Origin: Enterobacteria phage phiC600P9 | Length of the DNA: 64,000 bases | Sequence record: MZ681930.1 | Direction: 5' to 3' (one strand) | Shown here: in pieces, positions 56,707-64,000 of the stretch | How positions within the stretch are numbered: position 1 is the first letter of the stretch | Layout of the letters: every line of letters starts with the position of its first letter | Made by a program: the position numbers and the translations under genes | Notes under the pieces: generated by a model | Databases searched by the model: none | What the model was told of the DNA's origin: nothing | The model's input: only the letters and a program-made list of their open reading frames with translations

Positions 56707-57167
56707 TAATAAAGGTCCTCAGAGTAAAGTTCTTTTTCACTACCACCACGTTCAATACGTACTTGTCCAGCGTAAGTTGCAATAATCATTGCTTCTTCAC
56801 GTGTCCAATAATTACTATATTGGTCAATAAACCCTTGGTCATCATCACAAACTTGTTGAGTAACTAATTGTGGTTTAACTACATCTAAAACTGCTGCCAT
56901 ATCTTTAGAATAATGACGAGCACCTGGAATAACAAGAGTTCGTCCATCTTTTAATTTAAAACGGTTGGCTGCACAAACAATTCGTCGTTGATACTTTTGG
57001 TTTTCATCCCAGTATGCAGACTGCCAACAGATTTCAGGAACTTCTTTTAGAATATCTTCTTCTGTGCATTTATAACCATGCGCTTTAAATTTTTCAACAA
57101 GACTTTCTGGAGTTTCACGAGATAAAGGAACATTCAGCATTTTTAAACGATTAATAAATGGGTTCAT
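56706..57167 (-). CDS. Hypothetical protein
   Basis: 153 aa ORF. Confidence 0.6.
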
Positions 57168-57493
57168 TTAAACCATCCTTTAATACGTTGCCACAAAGTT
57201 TTCTGTTGAGCTTTGTTAACACCAATTGAGCGAATAACCGGTTGAGATTCCTGGAATTCTTTATAATCAGCAAGGTAAATTTCGTAAGCTGAATCTGTAA
57301 AGGAACTTATCGCTGCCATGAAATTATTGCGAATACCTACTGGAGCATCTTTACTTTCACGAATAATCATGTATTTACCAGTCTTAATCTTTACGATAGT
57401 TCCAAGATAAGCTCCATGGTACCAGATGTCCCACCCCTCTTGAGTGGGTTCTGCACAACGACGAAGTTCATTAACAATTTCTAACTTGTTCAT
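57164..57493 (-). CDS. Hypothetical protein (motA.1 position)
   Basis: 109 aa ORF. Confidence 0.6.
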
Positions 57494-57503
57494 TATTTAT
57501 TCC

Positions 57504-58139
57504 TCACAGTTCAGATGCTACAGTAATTACAGCTTCAATGTTTTCTGCTGAGCGTTTAATGTCAAGATACACATTACCATTTTTAGCGATTTTACATGAC
57601 ATTCCGATATCAGTAAATTTCTGAATATGATGTTCCATCATTTTGTATCCAAAAATTCGCATATTTCCATTGTTGTTAATTTCAAAATTACGAATTCCGT
57701 GAGTGCGTTTTTCTAAAATAGCGAGATAGTTACTACGATAAGTTTCAACCTTTTTAAGAACAAATCCATTTTCATCTAAAAGTTTTAACATGAAGTCTTT
57801 ATCTTCTTCCATATCAGAAGTAATCTCGCGAGCTTTACGAGTTGCTCGTTTTTTCAGCAGTTCCGGAGCGTTTTCCTGTGCGTATAAAGTTGCTGCATTT
57901 GAAATAATATCCTGAGCTTCACCAGTAATGATTAATCCATCACCAGATTTCTCCACCAGGCCTTTTTTAATCAATACCCCAATATTACTATTAACTACTG
58001 CATTACCTAAATCTGGATGCACCTCACGAACTTCTGCAGCTGTAATGAAATCTTTCTTAGCAATGGTAATTAAAATCGCAGCAGTTTTTTCATTCAGAAC
58101 ATCGTTAGAAGCTTTGATGATGTAAGTTACTTTAGACAT
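57504..58139 (-). CDS. motA: Middle transcription activator MotA
   Basis: 211 aa ORF, T4 MotA length and sequence character. Confidence 0.92.
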   Translation of the reverse strand: MSKVTYIIKASNDVLNEKTAAILITIAKKDFITAAEVREVHPDLGNAVVNSNIGVLIKKGLVEKSGDGLIITGEAQDIISNAATLYAQENAPELLKKRATRKAREITSDMEEDKDFMLKLLDENGFVLKKVETYRSNYLAILEKRTHGIRNFEINNNGNMRIFGYKMMEHHIQKFTDIGMSCKIAKNGNVYLDIKRSAENIEAVITVASEL

Positions 58140-58161
58140 TTTCTAATCTCCGTAATTCTGT

Positions 58162-58200
58162 ATCAGTAGTTGATAGTTGTATAGTACCACAGAATGCTTT
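58162..58200 (-). promoter_or_regulatory. Extended -10 early promoter for motA with ATTCTGT/ACAGAAT inverted repeat
   Basis: Minus strand AAAGCATTCTGTGGTACTATACAACTATCAACTACTGATACAGAAT; same 21-nt core as the element inside gene 32. Confidence 0.65.
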
Positions 58201-58201
58201 G

Positions 58202-58219
58202 GAGAGCCGAGGCTCTCCC
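58202..58219 (-). terminator. GGAGAGCC-UCGG-GCUCUCC hairpin
   Basis: Perfect 7-bp GC-rich stem between the small membrane ORF and the motA promoter. Confidence 0.55.
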
Positions 58220-58224
58220 TAAAA

Positions 58225-58374
58225 TTACTGCATGACTGTGATAACTGTCATGATAACGCGTTGAATGCCGAACGCAAGAAGACCTCCTGCTACGGCTGGA
58301 ACAACACCTAAACCCGCTAGTAAAATGCCGCCAGATACTAACGCCGCGCTTGTAATACCAATGAATGGACTCAT
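58225..58374 (-). CDS. Small hydrophobic membrane protein, translationally coupled to gene 52
   Basis: 49 aa ORF below the track cutoff: MSPFIGITSAALVSGGILLAGLGVVPAVAGGLLAFGIQRVIMTVITVMQ; ATGA overlap with the gene 52 stop. Confidence 0.6.
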   Translation of the reverse strand: MSPFIGITSAALVSGGILLAGLGVVPAVAGGLLAFGIQRVIMTVITVMQ

Positions 58375-59699
58375 TTGATTTCCTCTAAATCTTTGGTGTA
58401 TTCGGTAACTACATCAGTAGTTTTCCAATATTCGTTTTCTTCTTTCTTAGCTTTAGCTTCTTCAGCAAGTTTCTTTGCTTCATCAGAAGTCATATGAAAA
58501 ATATTCATACCGACTAGTTTATCAACATAAGAAGAATACATCTCAATTTTAGAAAGTTCTTCGGTCAGTTCTTTACGAGTTTTACCCTGTACAACAATTT
58601 CACCTGAAATTACTTTCTTAATGAAATGTGCCTTGGCAAAGGCTAAACGAAAAGCTGACTCAGTTTCTTTGATTTTGTTATCAATTCGTTTTTGGACATA
58701 AGTTTTACGAACTTCAACGAAGTCTTTGATTAAATCAACTACGTTATCGTAAACTTGTAGCTTTCCTTTCTCATTAATAACGGTAATATTCTGGGAACGA
58801 CGCTCAATCAACCCGAAGTCTTTCATAATTTTTGCATGGCGTTCTTCTTCATTATCGCTCAAAGAATATTCTTTACGGAATTTAACTTTAAAGCCAAAAC
58901 CATGCTCACCACAAGCATCATCCCATGTAATGAAGCCTTTATCTTCAAGTGGGTCTAAGATTTTACTCACATAAGTTTCACGATCATACTTATACGGAAT
59001 CTCAGTGATATGCATTTGAGTTCGTGAAGTAAACTTATATGTTCCACGAATTTCATATTGTCCATCAATTTCAACGACTTCACCACGAAATTCTGGGAAT
59101 TCTACCTTCGGTTTAGTTACTTTCTTTCCTTGAAGAGCTTGCAATACAGCTTTCTTGACAGAAGAAACACTATGAGGAAGAATGTAAGTTGCATAACCAG
59201 TTGCAATACCGGAAACACCATTAAGAAGAACAGTAGGAATAACAGGCAAATAGAAAGCAGGCGGAATGTGTTCTTTATCTTGATGTACCGGAGCATATTC
59301 AGTATCTTTATATACGTTATAGAAATTTTTACTTACACGAGCAAAAATATAACGACTTGCTGCTGCTTTTTGGACAGTACGAGAACCAAAGTTTCCTTGA
59401 CCATCTAACAGAGGAAAGTTATTATTCCAAGTGTTAGCCATCAAAGCACCTGCGTCTTGCGCAGAGTTTTCACCATGATGATATCCAAGGTCCGCTACAC
59501 CACCTGCAATAGAAGCGAGTTTGTGAAACTTATCTTTATTTCCTCGTGCCAAATCAAGAGCTCGAGCAATAACAAATCGTTGAACTGGCTTAAATCCATC
59601 AATCATATTTGGAATAGCACGATTTTCAACCGTGTACATAGCATAAGCCAATGCTTCATTATCAATGATACTTTTTAAATCGCGATTATTCAGTTGCAT
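58371..59699 (-). CDS. 52: DNA topoisomerase II medium subunit gp52
   Basis: 442 aa ORF, GyrA-like N-terminal domain, synteny. Confidence 0.92.
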   Translation of the reverse strand: MQLNNRDLKSIIDNEALAYAMYTVENRAIPNMIDGFKPVQRFVIARALDLARGNKDKFHKLASIAGGVADLGYHHGENSAQDAGALMANTWNNNFPLLDGQGNFGSRTVQKAAASRYIFARVSKNFYNVYKDTEYAPVHQDKEHIPPAFYLPVIPTVLLNGVSGIATGYATYILPHSVSSVKKAVLQALQGKKVTKPKVEFPEFRGEVVEIDGQYEIRGTYKFTSRTQMHITEIPYKYDRETYVSKILDPLEDKGFITWDDACGEHGFGFKVKFRKEYSLSDNEEERHAKIMKDFGLIERRSQNITVINEKGKLQVYDNVVDLIKDFVEVRKTYVQKRIDNKIKETESAFRLAFAKAHFIKKVISGEIVVQGKTRKELTEELSKIEMYSSYVDKLVGMNIFHMTSDEAKKLAEEAKAKKEENEYWKTTDVVTEYTKDLEEIK

Positions 59700-59836
59700 A
59701 AATTTACCATACTAGTGAATGTAGTGCCATAATAACATCAGAAATGAAAAGCACGACTTGAATTAATCCGAACATTATTCCGTAATATAATGCTACCAAT
59801 AAAGTAGCAAGGGCTAATGAATAGCCCAAGATTTTC

Positions 59837-59995
59837 TTAATCATTAGTAGATAACAACACAAATGTTAAATATGCACACATACCCTGAGCTAAAGCTTGC
59901 GAAAACACACTGCTGGCATCAATACAGATAGTTAAAACACATGCTACTATCCAACAAATAAATGAAATAACTCCTAATAATTTTGCGATATTCAT
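59837..59995 (-). CDS. ac: Small membrane protein Ac (acridine sensitivity)
   Basis: ORF track 59837..60025; start MNIAKLLG at 59995 with SD GAGGAG gives 52 aa with one transmembrane helix. Confidence 0.65.
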   Translation of the reverse strand: MNIAKLLGVISFICWIVACVLTICIDASSVFSQALAQGMCAYLTFVLLSTND

Positions 59996-60005
59996 AATAT
60001 TCTCC

Positions 60006-60161
60006 TCAACTATTTTTAGAACCAATGTACGCGAATAATGATAAAATCGCTAATACGCCCTGAGCTGATGCTTGCAAAAATACTGAAGTTTCTCCAGTTA
60101 TTACTGTTCCGATACATAAAAAGAACCAACAGAAAAAGGCTATACCGTGAACAAATTTCAT
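60006..60161 (-). CDS. Ac paralogue, small membrane protein
   Basis: 51 aa ORF below the track cutoff: MKFVHGIAFFCWFFLCIGTVITGETSVFLQASAQGV...; shares the SVF.QA.AQG block with Ac; SD GAGGAAA. Confidence 0.6.
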   Translation of the reverse strand: MKFVHGIAFFCWFFLCIGTVITGETSVFLQASAQGVLAILSLFAYIGSKNS

Positions 60162-60168
60162 ATTTTCC

Positions 60169-60249
60169 TCACTGGCGTCCGAAGACGCCTTTGGTTTTAA
60201 GATTGTTACGATAGAACTGCATCACGTGTTCGTTGTGGAAATTACTCAT
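60169..60249 (-). CDS. stp: Stp peptide (suppressor of three-prime phosphatase)
   Basis: 26 aa [29 protein letters not shown], matching T4 Stp as recalled; start overlaps the ndd stop (TAATG). Confidence 0.85.
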
Positions 60250-60707
60250 TAATATGCCTGCAAAACAAATTTAAAGTTATCAGCCAACATACGATTCATT
60301 TCTTCAAGCGTTTGATACTCAGAATGATGGTTACGAGTAAACGCCAAAGCTAACTGACCTTTTCCAAATCCTGTCGTCAGAGGTTTCATCTTAGAAGCAG
60401 GCAGATAAAACACTGTGTATGGAACATTGTTATTTGCAATAGTACGCGCAAGTTGAGACCGACGTTGACGAATATGACTTAGAACTGCACTGAATCCTTG
60501 CTTAGAACGCTGATTACCTACATAAAATCGTGCAGACACACATGGATTACTAAATGGACGACCATCTAATTTACTTACTAAAAAGTAAAATCCAGGTTTA
60601 GATAAAATATCTTTATGCGGAGTTCCTAAAAACCATTCACCACCCTTGATTGTACCAATAACAGTTGCGCCTGCATTATTCAGATCAGTAACAGTCATAT
60701 ATTTCAT
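60249..60707 (-). CDS. ndd: Nucleoid disruption protein Ndd
   Basis: 152 aa ORF, T4 Ndd length and position. Confidence 0.88.
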
Positions 60708-60766
60708 TTTAATTTCCTCTAATTATTTTCTACTCCAAGGCCGCATGAATACATACGGCCGATAAA

Positions 60767-60982
60767 TTAATCGTCGCAGTCGACGCTCAATTCCCAAAAC
60801 TCTTCTACGGTATAAGTTTCAGTATCATTTTCAATACAGAAACGTTCATTACTGTTATTTGCTAAAGTAGCGTTAACTGTCATTTTCTCGCTAGTGCTTT
60901 TAAGAGGTGAAATACGAATTAACTGATCACCATTATCTAAACAGAAAATTTCACCAACTTTTACATCTTTAAAGATTTTCAT
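60767..60982 (-). CDS. Hypothetical protein
   Basis: 71 aa ORF. Confidence 0.55.
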   Translation of the reverse strand: MKIFKDVKVGEIFCLDNGDQLIRISPLKSTSEKMTVNATLANNSNERFCIENDTETYTVEEFWELSVDCDD

Positions 60983-61097
60983 AATTCACCTCAAGGAGTA
61001 TAAAATCCAAATGCAGTTGTTGACCATCCCATCCAATATGGGAAATTTGCACCAATGTAAAACATAAGAATATAAAACCAACCACTCAGCAAATTCA

Positions 61098-61316
61098 TCA
61101 TTTTACGCCATTCCAAATTGTTTCAACCACAGATTTCAAACCATTTTGGTGAATATCCATTCCGACAACTGCCATCAAATAGATTCCAACTACAACTGAA
61201 CCTAAGGCGAAAATCAGCATGAAAATGAATAAAGCTGGAAAAATATTATCGAAAAACCATTCCATAAATGTAAAAGCACTACGTTTACGCTTCATATTTT
61301 CCTCACATAAATCCAA
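61098..61316 (-). CDS. Small membrane protein
   Basis: 72 aa ORF with a long hydrophobic segment. Confidence 0.55.
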   Translation of the reverse strand: MDLCEENMKRKRSAFTFMEWFFDNIFPALFIFMLIFALGSVVVGIYLMAVVGMDIHQNGLKSVVETIWNGVK

Positions 61317-61415
61317 AGTAAGCGTTTAATACATCAATCATTAAAACGATTGGGAATATACTCAAAACTACTAGTATTATAACTACATTCCATATAGCTT
61401 TAACAATCTTTTTCA
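61303..61415 (-). CDS. Small hydrophobic peptide
   Basis: 37 aa (MKKIVKAIWNVVIILVVLSIFPIVLMIDVLNAYFGFM) with SD GGAGGA and an early promoter directly upstream; the 82-aa track ORF is a longer frame extension. Confidence 0.55.
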
Positions 61416-61419
61416 TTTT

Positions 61420-61475
61420 CTGTTCCTCCGTAGTTGATAGGGTAATAATACCACAGAGGAACAGTCTTGTAAACA
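61420..61475 (-). promoter_or_regulatory. Early promoter with 9-bp inverted repeat covering the SD
   Basis: Minus strand GTTTACAAGA-CTGTTCCTC-tgtggtattattaccctatcaactacg-GAGGAACAG-aaaATG. Confidence 0.7.
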
Positions 61476-61576
61476 ACTTTTTTAAAAATATTCGTAATAA
61501 ATGTGAATACCAACTACTACCGCTGAAACCTGTGCAACCCACCACGCACAAGCAATAAGTACAGAATTAAAAATTT

Positions 61577-61663
61577 TCATAATAACCTCATCACAAAAGT
61601 AAATGTTAAACAAATTGCTGGAATACTAATTAACCAAACAAAACACCACCACAGTGAACTCAT
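61577..61663 (-). CDS. Small hydrophobic peptide, translationally coupled
   Basis: 28 aa (MSSLWWCFVWLISIPAICLTFTFVMRLL); ATGA overlap with the upstream 87-aa ORF stop. Confidence 0.45.
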   Translation of the reverse strand: MSSLWWCFVWLISIPAICLTFTFVMRLL

Positions 61664-61923
61664 AGTTCAATCTCAACGATTTCCAGGTGTTTTTGTTTTA
61701 TTGCCTTTTTAACACAATCATGGACTAAATATGACCATGAATCATTATATTCTCCATTAACTAATCGTTGGAGATCTTCACGCGATGATAAGTAAGGTTG
61801 ATCTGATTCCCATTTTGATAAAAATACTGCAGTAAAAATATCTCCTTCACCTGTAGTTGAAGTCGTAAATGCAATAAATTCACCGGTAATTTTATGTTTA
61901 GCGTAATAAAATTTAAATTTCAT
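61660..61923 (-). CDS. Hypothetical protein
   Basis: 87 aa ORF with SD GGAGGAG and an early promoter. Confidence 0.6.
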   Translation of the reverse strand: MKFKFYYAKHKITGEFIAFTTSTTGEGDIFTAVFLSKWESDQPYLSSREDLQRLVNGEYNDSWSYLVHDCVKKAIKQKHLEIVEIEL

Positions 61924-61939
61924 TTTTACTCCTCCGTAG

Positions 61940-61981
61940 CTGATAGTTGTATAGTACCACGGTCCTTGTGGTATGTAAACC
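61940..61981 (-). promoter_or_regulatory. Early promoter (GTTTACAT + TGGTACTATAC extended -10)
   Basis: Minus strand GTTTACATACCACAAGGACCGTGGTACTATACAACTATCAGCTACGGAGGAG. Confidence 0.7.
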
Positions 61982-61996
61982 GTTTTGTGAAAATTT

Positions 61997-62554
61997 TTAA
62001 ATGGAAAGATACCATCCGTTGTAGTTGCTTTTTCTTACAACCTTACGAAGGTCTTCTCTGTCACCGATGAACTTCGGAGTGTACTGGATGACACCTGGAT
62101 GAATTTCTTTAGTGTTGAATATAATTATACAGTCAGCGACTTGATGATTTAGAATGGGCCCTAGATTTATTCCAGAACCATATGGATACTCTCCGCTGCA
62201 TCCGGTTGTTACCGAAATCCAACGTGAGTCAGTTTGATGTGTCTTAACTTCTACACGAAGCCCACAGTATTTTGGATGCGCCAATACATCCCATGCATAT
62301 GTGTACGGATCATCAACATCTTCTTGACCTTTGTTAACATACCCGCTCAGCCAATCTGCTACAAAAAACTCTGCGTACACAGCGATACGGCATCTTTCGA
62401 TAACTTCTGCCTTATCCTGATTCGGATTTTGTTTTAAAGAGTATCTTGCTGTATCAGAAATTTTGACCTTCATTTCACTAGTCAAGTCACTGTTCGATAG
62501 GGTAAATGTCGGAATCTGAAATAGTCTCTGTAAACCCGGATTCGTTTTCTGCAT
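61997..62554 (-). CDS. denB: Endonuclease IV (DenB)
   Basis: 185 aa ORF, T4 DenB size, position between ndd and rIIB. Confidence 0.85.
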   Translation of the reverse strand: MQKTNPGLQRLFQIPTFTLSNSDLTSEMKVKISDTARYSLKQNPNQDKAEVIERCRIAVYAEFFVADWLSGYVNKGQEDVDDPYTYAWDVLAHPKYCGLRVEVKTHQTDSRWISVTTGCSGEYPYGSGINLGPILNHQVADCIIIFNTKEIHPGVIQYTPKFIGDREDLRKVVRKSNYNGWYLSI

Positions 62555-62816
62555 TTAGACTTTCCTTTTTACCACTGAGATAAGCGTTATATACTTTAAG
62601 AGTGCCGTAATAAATTCGGTCATTTTCATCTAAAGACTCGCGGTCAAGTTCATCGAGCTCCTTTTTATCCATGACTATAACATCATTACAGTAAAGAAAC
62701 CCAAGTTTTTCGTGACCAAACTCAAATTTATTACAGTACACAATATTAGCGTGATGATTTCCGTGCAGTTTAATCTCTTTTATGTCGGAATCACCGATAT
62801 TCATACAATAAATCAT
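62487..62816 (-). CDS. Hypothetical protein (denB.1 position)
   Basis: 109 aa ORF overlapping the denB 5' end. Confidence 0.5.
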   Translation of the reverse strand: MIYCMNIGDSDIKEIKLHGNHHANIVYCNKFEFGHEKLGFLYCNDVIVMDKKELDELDRESLDENDRIYYGTLKVYNAYLSGKKESLNAENESGFTETISDSDIYPIEQ

Positions 62817-62834
62817 AATTTTTCCTTAAAACAA

Positions 62835-62852
62835 AAGGGCCGAAGCCCTTTA
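62835..62852 (-). terminator. AAGGGC-UUCG-GCCCUU hairpin, copy 1
   Basis: Perfect hairpin; on the minus strand followed by TTTTGTTTT; identical 16-mer recurs at 63063-63080. Confidence 0.6.
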
Positions 62853-62854
62853 TT

Positions 62855-63049
62855 TTACTTGAATTGTGCAATTCTTTTTTCTAAACAATCTGCATAAGAT
62901 TTCATTGAGATGAGCTGCGAAAGCAGCAGTTCTTGCTCAACTTCATTAATCGTTAGAAACTTTGTGCTTTCTAAAAATTTGCTCAGTGCATTAATTTTGA
63001 GCATTAATTGATCGTATTCTTCTTTTACTCGTGCTTGATAACCTAACAT
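62855..63049 (-). CDS. Hypothetical protein (rIIB.1 position)
   Basis: 64 aa ORF flanked by the two identical hairpins. Confidence 0.55.
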   Translation of the reverse strand: MLGYQARVKEEYDQLMLKINALSKFLESTKFLTINEVEQELLLSQLISMKSYADCLEKRIAQFK

Positions 63050-63062
63050 AATTTTCCTCAGT

Positions 63063-63080
63063 TAAGGGCCGAAGCCCTTA
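63063..63080 (-). repeat. AAGGGC-UUCG-GCCCUU hairpin, copy 2 (direct repeat of 62835-62852)
   Basis: Same 16-mer AAGGGCCGAAGCCCTT immediately after the rIIB stop. Confidence 0.6.
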
Positions 63081-64000
63081 TTTAAATTGTTCAGTAACGT
63101 CTTCAACTACTTCGTATTGGCAGGTACGCATTTTAGCATCGTTGTAATCAATCGGAATTGATACTACATCGCGAGGATGTACTTTAACTTTTACAACTCG
63201 ACTGGTTGAACTGCCAAAGTGACGAATATAAGATTTAGAACACACATGCAGACCACGAGAACAAGTTTGTGTATCATCGTCATTCACACGAGTACGTGGC
63301 ATTTTAACTACTTTACCGGGACTGTTATCGAAAGTATTTGAATGACAGTCAAAGTAATTACTACGAACTACTTTCCAAGCATAGAAGTAGCCGTCTTCCG
63401 TAATTTCAATATCGTTTGCTACCAAGAAATCAAAGAGCCGAGATACCGCTTTTTGGCTCGGGTTTTCCAACAGATTTTCCAAAAACGGAAAATAAAATTC
63501 AAAGTTTTCGCCTTTTTCCATCGAGTCAAGAATACGATCAACTAAACCAGACCGCAATTCAATATTTTGATAGAACAGGCTTCCACCTTCAATTCGAACA
63601 TCACCGGAAATATATTTTTCAACAGCGCGACGAACATTAATTTTTTGTGCCGCTTCTTCTAATTTATCTGCAACAAGCAGATTAAGAATTTCCTGGAAGT
63701 TTGAATGAGTATTAGGAGTTGCGTTATAAGTTACACCGTCAACAGTAATTGAAATGAATTTTTTAGATGCATTCCAAATAATGTCAGATTTAGCAACCGG
63801 AGCAATAACTGCATCGCTATTAACTTTAACTGTAATATCACCGCTAATAGTAACTTTAGGGCGTTTAGCTTCTTCAGCATTTTTCAAAACACGACGGATT
63901 GTGTCAACCGATACATCCTTCCAATAAGCCAATTCCTGTTGGGTGTAATTACCGCTTGAATACAGTTTAACAATTTCAGCTTGTTCGTTTTTGGTCAGGC
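63078..64000 (-). CDS. rIIB: rIIB protein, 3' portion (5' end outside window)
   Basis: Frame open to the window edge; C-terminal 284 aa recognisable as rIIB. Confidence 0.85.
   Translation of the reverse strand, partial: LTKNEQAEIVKLYSSGNYTQQELAYWKDVSVDTIRRVLKNAEEAKRPKVTISGDITVKVNSDAVIAPVAKSDIIWNASKKFISITVDGVTYNATPNTHSNFQEILNLLVADKLEEAAQKINVRRAVEKYISGDVRIEGGSLFYQNIELRSGLVDRILDSMEKGENFEFYFPFLENLLENPSQKAVSRLFDFLVANDIEITEDGYFYAWKVVRSNYFDCHSNTFDNSPGKVVKMPRTRVNDDDTQTCSRGLHVCSKSYIRHFGSSTSRVVKVKVHPRDVVSIPIDYNDAKMRTCQYEVVEDVTEQFK

Follow-up and report, generated by a model that had tools for sequence, protein, structure and literature searches.

Small hydrophobic early genes between gene 52 and denB of Enterobacteria phage phiC600P9: orthologues of T4 ndd.x and motA.1 and probable accessory inner-membrane micro-proteins

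Gene content and organization of the locus

The analysed DNA, here called the window, is the whole stretch of 64,000 nucleotides from Enterobacteria phage phiC600P9 (record MZ681930.1). Its segment 60700-62000 is 100% identical to the phiC600P9 record MT630408.1 (Tequatrovirus) and is also matched, at 80-99% identity, by 498 further records of T4-like phages. Nine small hydrophobic early genes, ac, an ac paralogue and 52.1 included, are closely packed between gene 52 and denB; eight of them have a clear predicted membrane helix, and ndd.2 has a weaker one. These genes, their soluble neighbours and the promoters are as follows:

58225-58374, minus strand: motA.1 orthologue, 49 aa, hydrophobic, Gly/Ala/Leu-rich (phrog_3487, E 7e-31)
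59704-59844, minus strand: 52.1, 46 aa, small hydrophobic
59837-59995, minus strand: ac paralogue, 52 aa, small hydrophobic
60006-60161, minus strand: ac, 51 aa, small hydrophobic
60767-60982, minus strand: ndd.1 orthologue, 71 aa, soluble, acidic (phrog_2183), the last array gene before ndd
60991-61101, minus strand: ndd.2 orthologue, 36 aa, aromatic-rich, uncharged (phrog_4135), ATGA-coupled to the 65-aa gene
61098-61295, minus strand: 65-aa gene equivalent to T4 'ndd.3' plus 'ndd.2a' (Pfam DUF7248, PF23906; phrog_2401, T4 Ndd.2a)
61303-61416, minus strand: ndd.4 orthologue, 37 aa from ATG (phrog_3098)
61445-61474, minus strand: T4-type early promoter before ndd.4, perfect match to GTTTACA-N14-TGGTATTAT
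61482-61580, minus strand: ndd.5 orthologue, 32 aa, single hydrophobic helix (phrog_5011, E 9e-26)
61577-61663, minus strand: ndd.6 orthologue, 28 aa, single hydrophobic helix (phrog_8851)
61660-61923, minus strand: 87-aa ORF (ORF87), soluble (phrog_2390), its stop overlapping the ndd.6 start (ATGA)
61951-61980, minus strand: T4-type early promoter before ORF87, ndd.6 and ndd.5, perfect match to GTTTACW-N14-KGKTAYWAT

An earlier note on this DNA had described a cluster of three strongly hydrophobic minus-strand ORFs, with a similar fourth one at 58225-58374, as unannotated. The frames themselves are all present (61098-61316 with 72 aa from a TTG, 61303-61416, 61577-61663 and 58225-58374), although the start given for the 37-aa ORF was one base off and two array members, ndd.5 (61482-61580) and ndd.2 (60991-61101), had been omitted from the list. 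The word "unannotated" does not stand, since the genes have T4 names, PHROG families and, in one case, a Pfam family (DUF7248), and MT630408 annotates all the ORFs except ndd.6, as hypothetical proteins. The rIIB gene was considered as possibly truncated in phiC600P9, a reading that was rejected because rIIB is merely cut by the end of the window.

The 72-aa frame is indeed open from TTG 61316, but this codon has no ribosome-binding site and falls inside the end of ndd.4, whereas ATG 61295, chosen as the start in the source record and in most relatives, has a GAGGA before it; the gene most likely starts at ATG 61295 and encodes a product of 65 aa. Four ATGA overlaps connect ORF87 with ndd.6, ndd.6 with ndd.5, the 65-aa gene with ndd.2, and gene 52 with motA.1, among which the first and the last bear out the coupling previously proposed for the 28-aa and 49-aa ORFs. 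Ribosome sites are strong at ORF87 (GGAGGAG) and present at ndd.4 (GGAGGA, 7 nt before ATG 61416), ndd.5 (GAGG) and motA.1 (GAGGA), while ndd.6 and ndd.2 have no good site and rely on coupling.

The early promoter that had been assigned to the 37-aa ORF along with its GGAGGA is found at 61445-61474; it appears in a sigma-70 scan as TTTACA-17-TATTAT with a TG, and both the promoter and the leader are conserved in T4. The element at 61951-61980 is likewise recovered by the sigma-70 scan, with TG preceding the -10, and its motif suggests that it would function as a promoter. The GTTTACW-N14-KGKTAYWAT motif occurs 11 times in the window against 1.78 expected, all 11 matches lying on the minus strand, and corresponds to the PST/T4 early-promoter consensus TTTACW-N17-TAYWAT (PMC4122927). 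The generic sigma-70 scan showed no enrichment (22 matches vs 25.1 in shuffles) and thus carries no weight on its own. A clear stem-loop partner was not found for either the 61445-61474 or the 61951-61980 promoter.

Correspondence with the T4 genes

Along the T4 reference, in the direction from denB to ndd, the genes are ndd.6, ndd.5, ndd.4, ndd.3, ndd.2a, ndd.2 and ndd.1, and when the window is aligned directly to T4 each ORF falls on its counterpart (ndd.1-ndd.6); T4 motA.1 overlaps the end of gene 52, and the 49-aa ORF occupies the same place. On this alignment, the 28-aa ORF is ndd.6, the 37-aa ORF is ndd.4, the 72-aa ORF is ndd.3 plus ndd.2a, and the 49-aa ORF is motA.1. Every peptide matches a PHROG family, and the largest also matches Pfam DUF7248. 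Specifically, ndd.6 matches phrog_8851 over its full length (E 7.1e-17, residues 1-28 of 28) and lies upstream of ndd.5, to which it is ATGA-coupled, ndd.4 matches phrog_3098 over its full length (E 3.1e-21, residues 1-37 of 37) and is 97% identical to T4 ndd.4 in nucleotides, and the 65-aa protein matches phrog_2401 (E 6e-30) and, over residues 5-63, DUF7248 (E 1.4e-20, 73.4 bits against a Pfam gathering cut-off of 27 bits). ORF87 is missing from the T4 reference, which retains only its last eight codons before ndd.6. In the neighbouring part of the block, ac and its paralogue are 43% identical (E 6e-10). The hydrophobic ORFs between ndd and denB are long-catalogued T4 genes, already known and not new, so their discovery value is little: T4 gene lists have included them for decades, and PHROGs and Pfam contain them as well.

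The split of the 65-aa gene into ndd.3 and ndd.2a in T4 comes from one missing G at codon 2. Its absence is confined to X75802, AF158101 and NC_000866, and the base is present in all resequenced T4 genomes (T4T, KJ477684/5, OZ209023, OZ209057) and in about 325 relatives, a distribution across records according to which the missing G is almost certainly an error of the original 1990s T4 sequence. The error has propagated into the gene lists of recent omics and CRISPRi screens.

Searches for homologues of known function were negative within their reach. The matches in Pfam and NCBIfam were limited to DUF7248 and two sub-threshold ones, none of them informative, and across Pfam, PHROG and NCBIfam the peptides match only their own families. 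For the 65-aa protein, phmmer against 1.84 billion representatives returned 5 hits, all close relatives or spurious, and a word-indexed search only 7 close relatives. The AlphaFold2 model of ORF87 (pLDDT 88.8) had no match at E<=0.001 in a Foldseek search of the PDB. As no homologue of known function was found at the available sensitivity, function is argued here from form and context. An Rfam scan of 57000-64000 gave nothing in the array, which removes known RNA elements from the alternatives.

Conservation and selection

The reading frames are intact in the 14-15 Tequatrovirus genomes sampled, ndd.6 in 14 of 15 relatives, with a frameshift at the ndd.6 3' end in relative L007. Pooled over the five hydrophobic ORFs, 50 variants are synonymous and 30 non-synonymous; omega is 0.15 in the annotated frame (p=1.6e-16) against 0.66 (p 0.064) and 1.11 (p 0.67) in off-frames 1 and 2. 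Gene by gene, omega is 0.09 for the 65-aa gene (p=2.5e-10), 0.10 for ndd.5 (p=4e-4), 0.21 for ndd.2 (p=3e-4), 0.22 for ndd.6 and 0.11 for ndd.1. With only 5 variants within the genus, ndd.4 alone gives no clear signal of selection there; across genera its pN is 0.23-0.26 against a pS of 0.65-0.77. The cross-genus pN is well under pS for ndd.6 and the 65-aa gene too.

The array extends beyond Tequatrovirus: other genera of the Tevenvirinae also have ndd.4, the 65-aa gene and ndd.6, and the synteny ORF87-ndd.6-ndd.4-(65 aa)-ndd.1-ndd is kept in Gaprivervirus and Dhakavirus. The counts rest on GenBank phage records, an IMG/VR scan having given only 5 loci. By tblastn, ndd.4 is found in 595 of these records, including about 100 from other genera, where identity is 55-61%. 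Nearly all of 494 records have an undisrupted 65-aa gene, and motA.1 is present in 458 Tequatrovirus records at 94-100% identity. As the first gene past an early promoter of the denB-ndd interval, ndd.4 holds the same position in VR26, QL01 and MY742. In Gaprivervirus VR26 and Dhakavirus QL01, the homologue of ORF87 is followed by one of ndd.6 that lacks annotation, with a TTG start that overlaps the upstream stop and with the motif WC..W...IP.IC..F kept. The 65-aa gene recurs in VR26 and as a 76-aa relative; its helix diverges, and the tail NGLKSV..T.WNG.K is invariant. For ndd.2, a possible homologue exists in Enterobacter phage MY742.

These data bear on the most sceptical reading of the locus, namely that AT-rich DNA has produced these ORFs by chance, or that their translation serves only to regulate genes downstream. 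In its favour, the frames are very short, T-rich codons favour hydrophobic residues, the ribosome sites of ndd.6 and ndd.2 are poor, and mass spectrometry failed to detect the peptides. On the other hand, the synonymous excess is frame-specific, amino-acid motifs are kept between genera while synonymous sites are near saturation, and equally hydrophobic ORFs are rare elsewhere in the window, so that a non-functional origin is extremely improbable. The pattern of substitutions indicates that the tiny frames are real genes under purifying selection and not annotation noise; conservation in related phages, whose lack the earlier note had named as one refutation of its proposal, is what was found.

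Hydrophobicity and predicted topology

The strong hydrophobicity previously noticed is confirmed by the best 19-residue Kyte-Doolittle means, which are 2.17-3.05 for ndd.6, ndd.5, ndd.4, the 65-aa protein and motA.1. Single-pass inner-membrane proteins are expected to have a stretch of some 19 residues or longer over the customary threshold of 1.6, as all five do, and the highest value, 3.05, belongs to ndd.4, which is also the peptide of the array with the widest conservation. The mean of ndd.2 is only 1.17, under the 1.6 threshold, which leaves its membrane helix uncertain. All six frames together contain 283 ATG-initiated ORFs of 25-80 aa across the window, of which about 6% reach 2.1; on the minus strand, 8 of the 13 that do so are within 58225-61663, and the remaining ones are mostly out-of-frame inside large genes. 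Small hydrophobic ORFs cluster non-randomly.

Basic N-termini are present in ndd.4 (MKKIVK...), ndd.5 (MK...) and the 65-aa protein (MKRKRS...) and, under the positive-inside rule, predict an N-in, C-out orientation for these three. The 65-aa protein consists of a basic N-terminus, one long helix and the C-terminal tail NGLKSV..T.WNG.K, and AlphaFold2 models it as a short N-terminal helix (4-17) and one long helix (19-64); given the N-in/C-out orientation, its amphipathic, invariant 20-residue tail is predicted to be periplasmic. Hydrophobicity and charge distribution support the earlier view of small membrane peptides, and the products are probably micro-proteins of 28-65 aa that insert into the host inner membrane by one hydrophobic helix each.

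Other localizations have been attached to these genes. T4 Ndd.2, Ndd.5 and Ndd.6, as well as their PHROGs, carry an outer-membrane or lipoprotein label, which was rejected, as the features of a lipobox or a barrel are not found. The cysteine of a lipobox is expected at about position 15-35, after a cleavable signal peptide (PROSITE PS51257 rule). Ndd.5 does contain LIAC, but its Cys is residue 11 and the remaining peptide is the hydrophobic helix, and Ndd.6 and Ndd.2 have no lipobox; an outer-membrane barrel is excluded because peptides of 28-36 aa are too short to form one. The labels "outer membrane protein" and "periplasmic protein" are old predictions, for which the sequences of the 28-36 aa peptides give no support.

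Expression and dispensability

Small hydrophobic peptides are poor targets for mass spectrometry. In T4, the hydrophobic peptides went undetected by this technique (Class_P = NA), while Ndd and Ndd.1 were detected, the latter as early (PMC9697503). The transcripts of T4 ndd.2-ndd.6, motA.1, 52.1 and ac belong to the early class (PMC9697503 Table S2) and the promoters of the window are of the early type, in agreement with the early expression that had been proposed. Selection on the frames suggests that the hydrophobic peptides are translated. The literature search retrieved no ribosome profiling study of T4 and no functional study of the ndd.x peptides, name searches being obscured by papers on 'NDD' (neurodevelopmental disorder).

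Knockdown of T4 ndd.1-ndd.6 and motA.1 by CRISPRi-ART scored 'Not Fit' (PMC11879866). The deletion saΔ9, which removes 52.1, ac, stp, ndd, ndd.1-ndd.6 and denB, is viable with about 50% of the wild-type yield (PMC6071114), and the genome-reduced T4_583L, whose deletion runs from mid-ndd.5 to mid-ndd.2a, has a burst of 109 vs 120 (PMC9825161). Early transcription and dispensability on laboratory hosts hold for the T4 orthologues.

The same observations weigh on the possibility that the peptides are membrane-active toxins or timers of lysis, similar to holins, antiholins or type I toxins, and depolarise the membrane or make it permeable. In size and hydrophobicity they are similar to type I toxins and pinholins, the Gly/Ala-rich helix of motA.1 is of the glycine-zipper kind, and a paralogous neighbour, Ac, is annotated as affecting acridine permeability. 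However, an early depolarising toxin would harm the phage, the T4 lysis genes (t, rI, rIII) are located elsewhere, the Pfam holin and toxin families give no match, and knockdown leaves fitness unchanged in both directions (PMC11879866), making a toxin or lysis role very unlikely.

Proposed role and alternatives

The reading that best accommodates form, timing and context is that the orthologues of ndd.6, ndd.5, ndd.4, the 65-aa protein, ndd.2 and motA.1 are accessory inner-membrane micro-proteins that retune host envelope proteins, which is considered probable. In this model, the host RNA polymerase would transcribe the genes from the two T4-type early promoters in the first minutes of infection, translation would proceed via their own Shine-Dalgarno sites or ATGA stop-start coupling, and the single hydrophobic helix of each peptide would insert in the host inner membrane. 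There, the peptides would serve as accessory factors, dispensable on laboratory hosts, and would most likely, in the manner of MgrB, SafA, AcrZ and KdpF, bind larger proteins of the host envelope and adjust their activity. Translation, insertion, topology and target are the predicted elements of this scheme.

The earlier note had suggested superinfection exclusion, membrane-potential control or defence modulation, all of them generic candidate roles. The first of these would have the peptides contribute to superinfection exclusion or envelope sealing, blocking the entry of DNA from a secondary phage or the penetration of the wall, as Imm and Sp do. Like Imm and Sp, the peptides are early and have a predicted envelope location (inner membrane, and periplasm for the tail of the 65-aa protein), but the Pfam, PHROG and NCBIfam scans give no similarity to families of known function. 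Against an exclusion role for the peptides also stands the fact that imm and sp account for most of T4 exclusion. Moreover, an exclusion phenotype of saΔ9 is not reported in the literature found (PMC6071114). A role in exclusion is accordingly quite unlikely.

Counter-defence is a further alternative, in which the peptides neutralise, or are sensed by, membrane-associated abortive-infection systems of the host or of prophages, such as those with which the neighbours rIIA/rIIB and Stp interact. The locus has the appropriate surroundings: it belongs to a hyperplastic accessory region, next to stp, ac and rIIB, and its gene content differs between genera; PeSL-type shuffling has been described at exactly the same locus (PMC4122927), and RIIB is reported to be sensed by a membrane defence system (PMC13001434). 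Dispensability on laboratory K-12 and B is also what host-specific factors would show. Yet the sequences are very uniform within Tequatrovirus (93-100% amino-acid identity), unlike those of many arms-race genes, and a role in defence or its triggering is judged unlikely overall.

Returning to the preferred reading of accessory envelope micro-proteins, a candidate process is offered by the phospholipids of the infected cell. The stimulation of phospholipid synthesis that follows infection is abolished in saΔ9, several genes of the deleted region are predicted membrane proteins according to the authors, and rIIΔDD2, which partly overlaps saΔ9, also loses the specific stimulation of phosphatidylglycerol (PMC6071114). 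The lipid loss of saΔ9 is the only phenotype mapped to the interval without an assigned gene, and the nine-gene block coincides with the only mapped determinant of host-phospholipid stimulation by T4. That at least one peptide underlies the saΔ9 loss of T4-induced phospholipid and phosphatidylglycerol synthesis is a tentative proposal that may well be wrong. Because denB, ndd, stp, ac and 52.1 are likewise missing from saΔ9, the loss of lipid stimulation may be due to one of them or be indirect. Equally doubtful, if conceivable, is the narrower proposal that one of the micro-proteins is encoded by the phage to regulate specifically an enzyme or a sensor of the host inner membrane. Such a regulator may best be sought in the 65-aa DUF7248 protein, with its invariant and predicted periplasmic tail, and in the widely conserved Ndd.4. 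If this were true, a target in phospholipid synthesis would account for the loss of phosphatidylglycerol stimulation in saΔ9, and a membrane-bound defence system would be the other possible target.

Comparison with known systems

The closest system is that of T4 itself, in which ndd.2, ndd.2a/ndd.3, ndd.4-ndd.6 and motA.1 (NC_000866, T4p263 and T4p270-T4p275) have the same position, order and strand, with 93-100% amino-acid identity, identical ATGA couplings, and a common early promoter and PHROG families. The differences are that the 65-aa gene is whole in phiC600P9 and split by the single missing base in the T4 reference, that phiC600P9 has the 87-aa gene upstream of ndd.6 and T4 does not, and that T4 ndd.4 is annotated from an upstream ATG that is missing in phiC600P9. 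Within the same interval, T4 Ac and 52.1 belong to the same class of hydrophobic early peptides (46-52 aa), but their families differ from those of ndd.x, and Ac has a genetic phenotype (acridine response) whereas the ndd.x peptides have none. T4 Imm and Sp are early, small, envelope-located and non-essential, like the ndd.x peptides. They differ in that Imm contains two helices and Sp is secreted into the periplasm; the family scans gave the peptides no family but their own, and the ndd.x genes have no exclusion phenotype linked to them.

At the level of genome organization, the locus resembles the PeSL cassettes, made of an early promoter and a stem-loop (PMC2839356, PMC4122927), whose promoter consensus is the one found here; the ndd.4/ndd.5 locus is a published example of cassette exchange (PMC4122927), and the gain or loss of ORF87 adjoins a PeSL-type promoter. 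PeSLs explain the shuffling of small genes, not their function. For function, the closest parallels in form are the bacterial micro-proteins MgrB (47 aa), SafA (65 aa), AcrZ (49 aa) and KdpF (29 aa), which bind larger membrane proteins (PMC12648545). Although the phiC600P9 peptides are phage-encoded and have no sequence similarity to these, so that the resemblance is one of form only, they are of the same size class and are likewise predicted to cross the membrane once, with short tails on either side of the helix. The 65-aa protein in particular is laid out like SafA and MgrB, its basic N-terminus being followed by one helix and by a short conserved tail that is predicted to lie outside.

A single gene behind ndd.3 and ndd.2a

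The T4 reference lists a 26-aa 'ndd.3' and a 40-aa 'ndd.2a', which together constitute a single 65-aa gene (DUF7248; window 61098-61295, minus strand) interrupted by one absent G at codon 2.

Window 61288-61295, corresponding to T4 NC_000866 166626-166628: site of the missing G

The deletion is confined to X75802, AF158101, and NC_000866, and T4 strains sequenced anew carry the base, as do about 325 relatives; therefore, its absence from the T4 reference is most likely a sequencing error. The resulting split has been carried into the gene lists behind recent omics and CRISPRi studies.

Separately, two independent in-frame fusions, in Shigella phage Sf25 and in the genome-reduced T4_583L, join members of the array of small early genes that runs from ndd.6 to ndd.1 between denB and ndd.

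Sf25 gp120: N-terminus from Ndd.4, C-terminus from the 65-aa protein
T4_583L 2064-2195: N-terminus from Ndd.5, C-terminus from the 65-aa protein

In both fusions, the junction lies at short 'VVG' repeats within the helices.

As for nomenclature, orthologues of Ndd.4 and Ndd.2, two members of the array, are often wrongly named in GenBank/RefSeq (T6, AR1, PST, ime09, and other phage records) as 'naphthalene 1,2-dioxygenase', 'chaperone for long tail fiber formation', or 'sugar ABC transporter permease', and motA.1 often appears in phage records as 'transcriptional regulator'; these names are annotation errors spread by propagation.

Elements flanking the array

Window 59704-59844: 52.1, without annotation in the source record MT630408
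Window 59837-59995: ac (acridine) paralogue, 52 aa, like that of AR1
Window 60006-60161: ac, T4 type, 51 aa
Window 60169-60249: stp, without annotation in MT630408
Window 60720-60790: a pair of GC-rich hairpins between ndd.1 and ndd, CGTCGACTGCGACG and GGCCGTATGTATTCATGCGGCC
Window 62487-62816: 109-aa ORF between denB.1 and denB, overlapping the long denB frame at its 5' end

The two tandem ac paralogues of phiC600P9 are 43% identical to each other. The hairpins are kept in T4 and may function as an RNA-processing or attenuation element dividing the peptide array from ndd. On the denB side, the 109-aa ORF is found in phiC600P9 and IME537, not in T4, and MT630408 places the denB start later (158 aa).

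Coupling of ORF87 to ndd.6

Window 61660-61923: ORF87, an 87-aa soluble gene (phrog_2390), overlapping ndd.6 by ATGA

ORF87 falls into two allele groups, about 32% apart in nucleotides, and the adjoining ndd.6, likewise without annotation in MT630408, is about 95% identical despite this split, which marks a recombination boundary between them. The AlphaFold2 model of ORF87 is confident; a search of PDB folds found no match to it. T4 lacks ORF87, and only its final 8 codons (MKIAEIEL*) remain upstream of T4 ndd.6. In other genera, unannotated ndd.6 homologues of 27-29 aa are present.

VR26 (Gaprivervirus) 2395-2478: ndd.6 homologue
QL01 (Dhakavirus) 2387-2476: ndd.6 homologue

In both phages, the ndd.6 homologue starts at a TTG that overlaps the ORF87 homologue's stop, and the coupling of ORF87 to ndd.6 is thus kept across genera.
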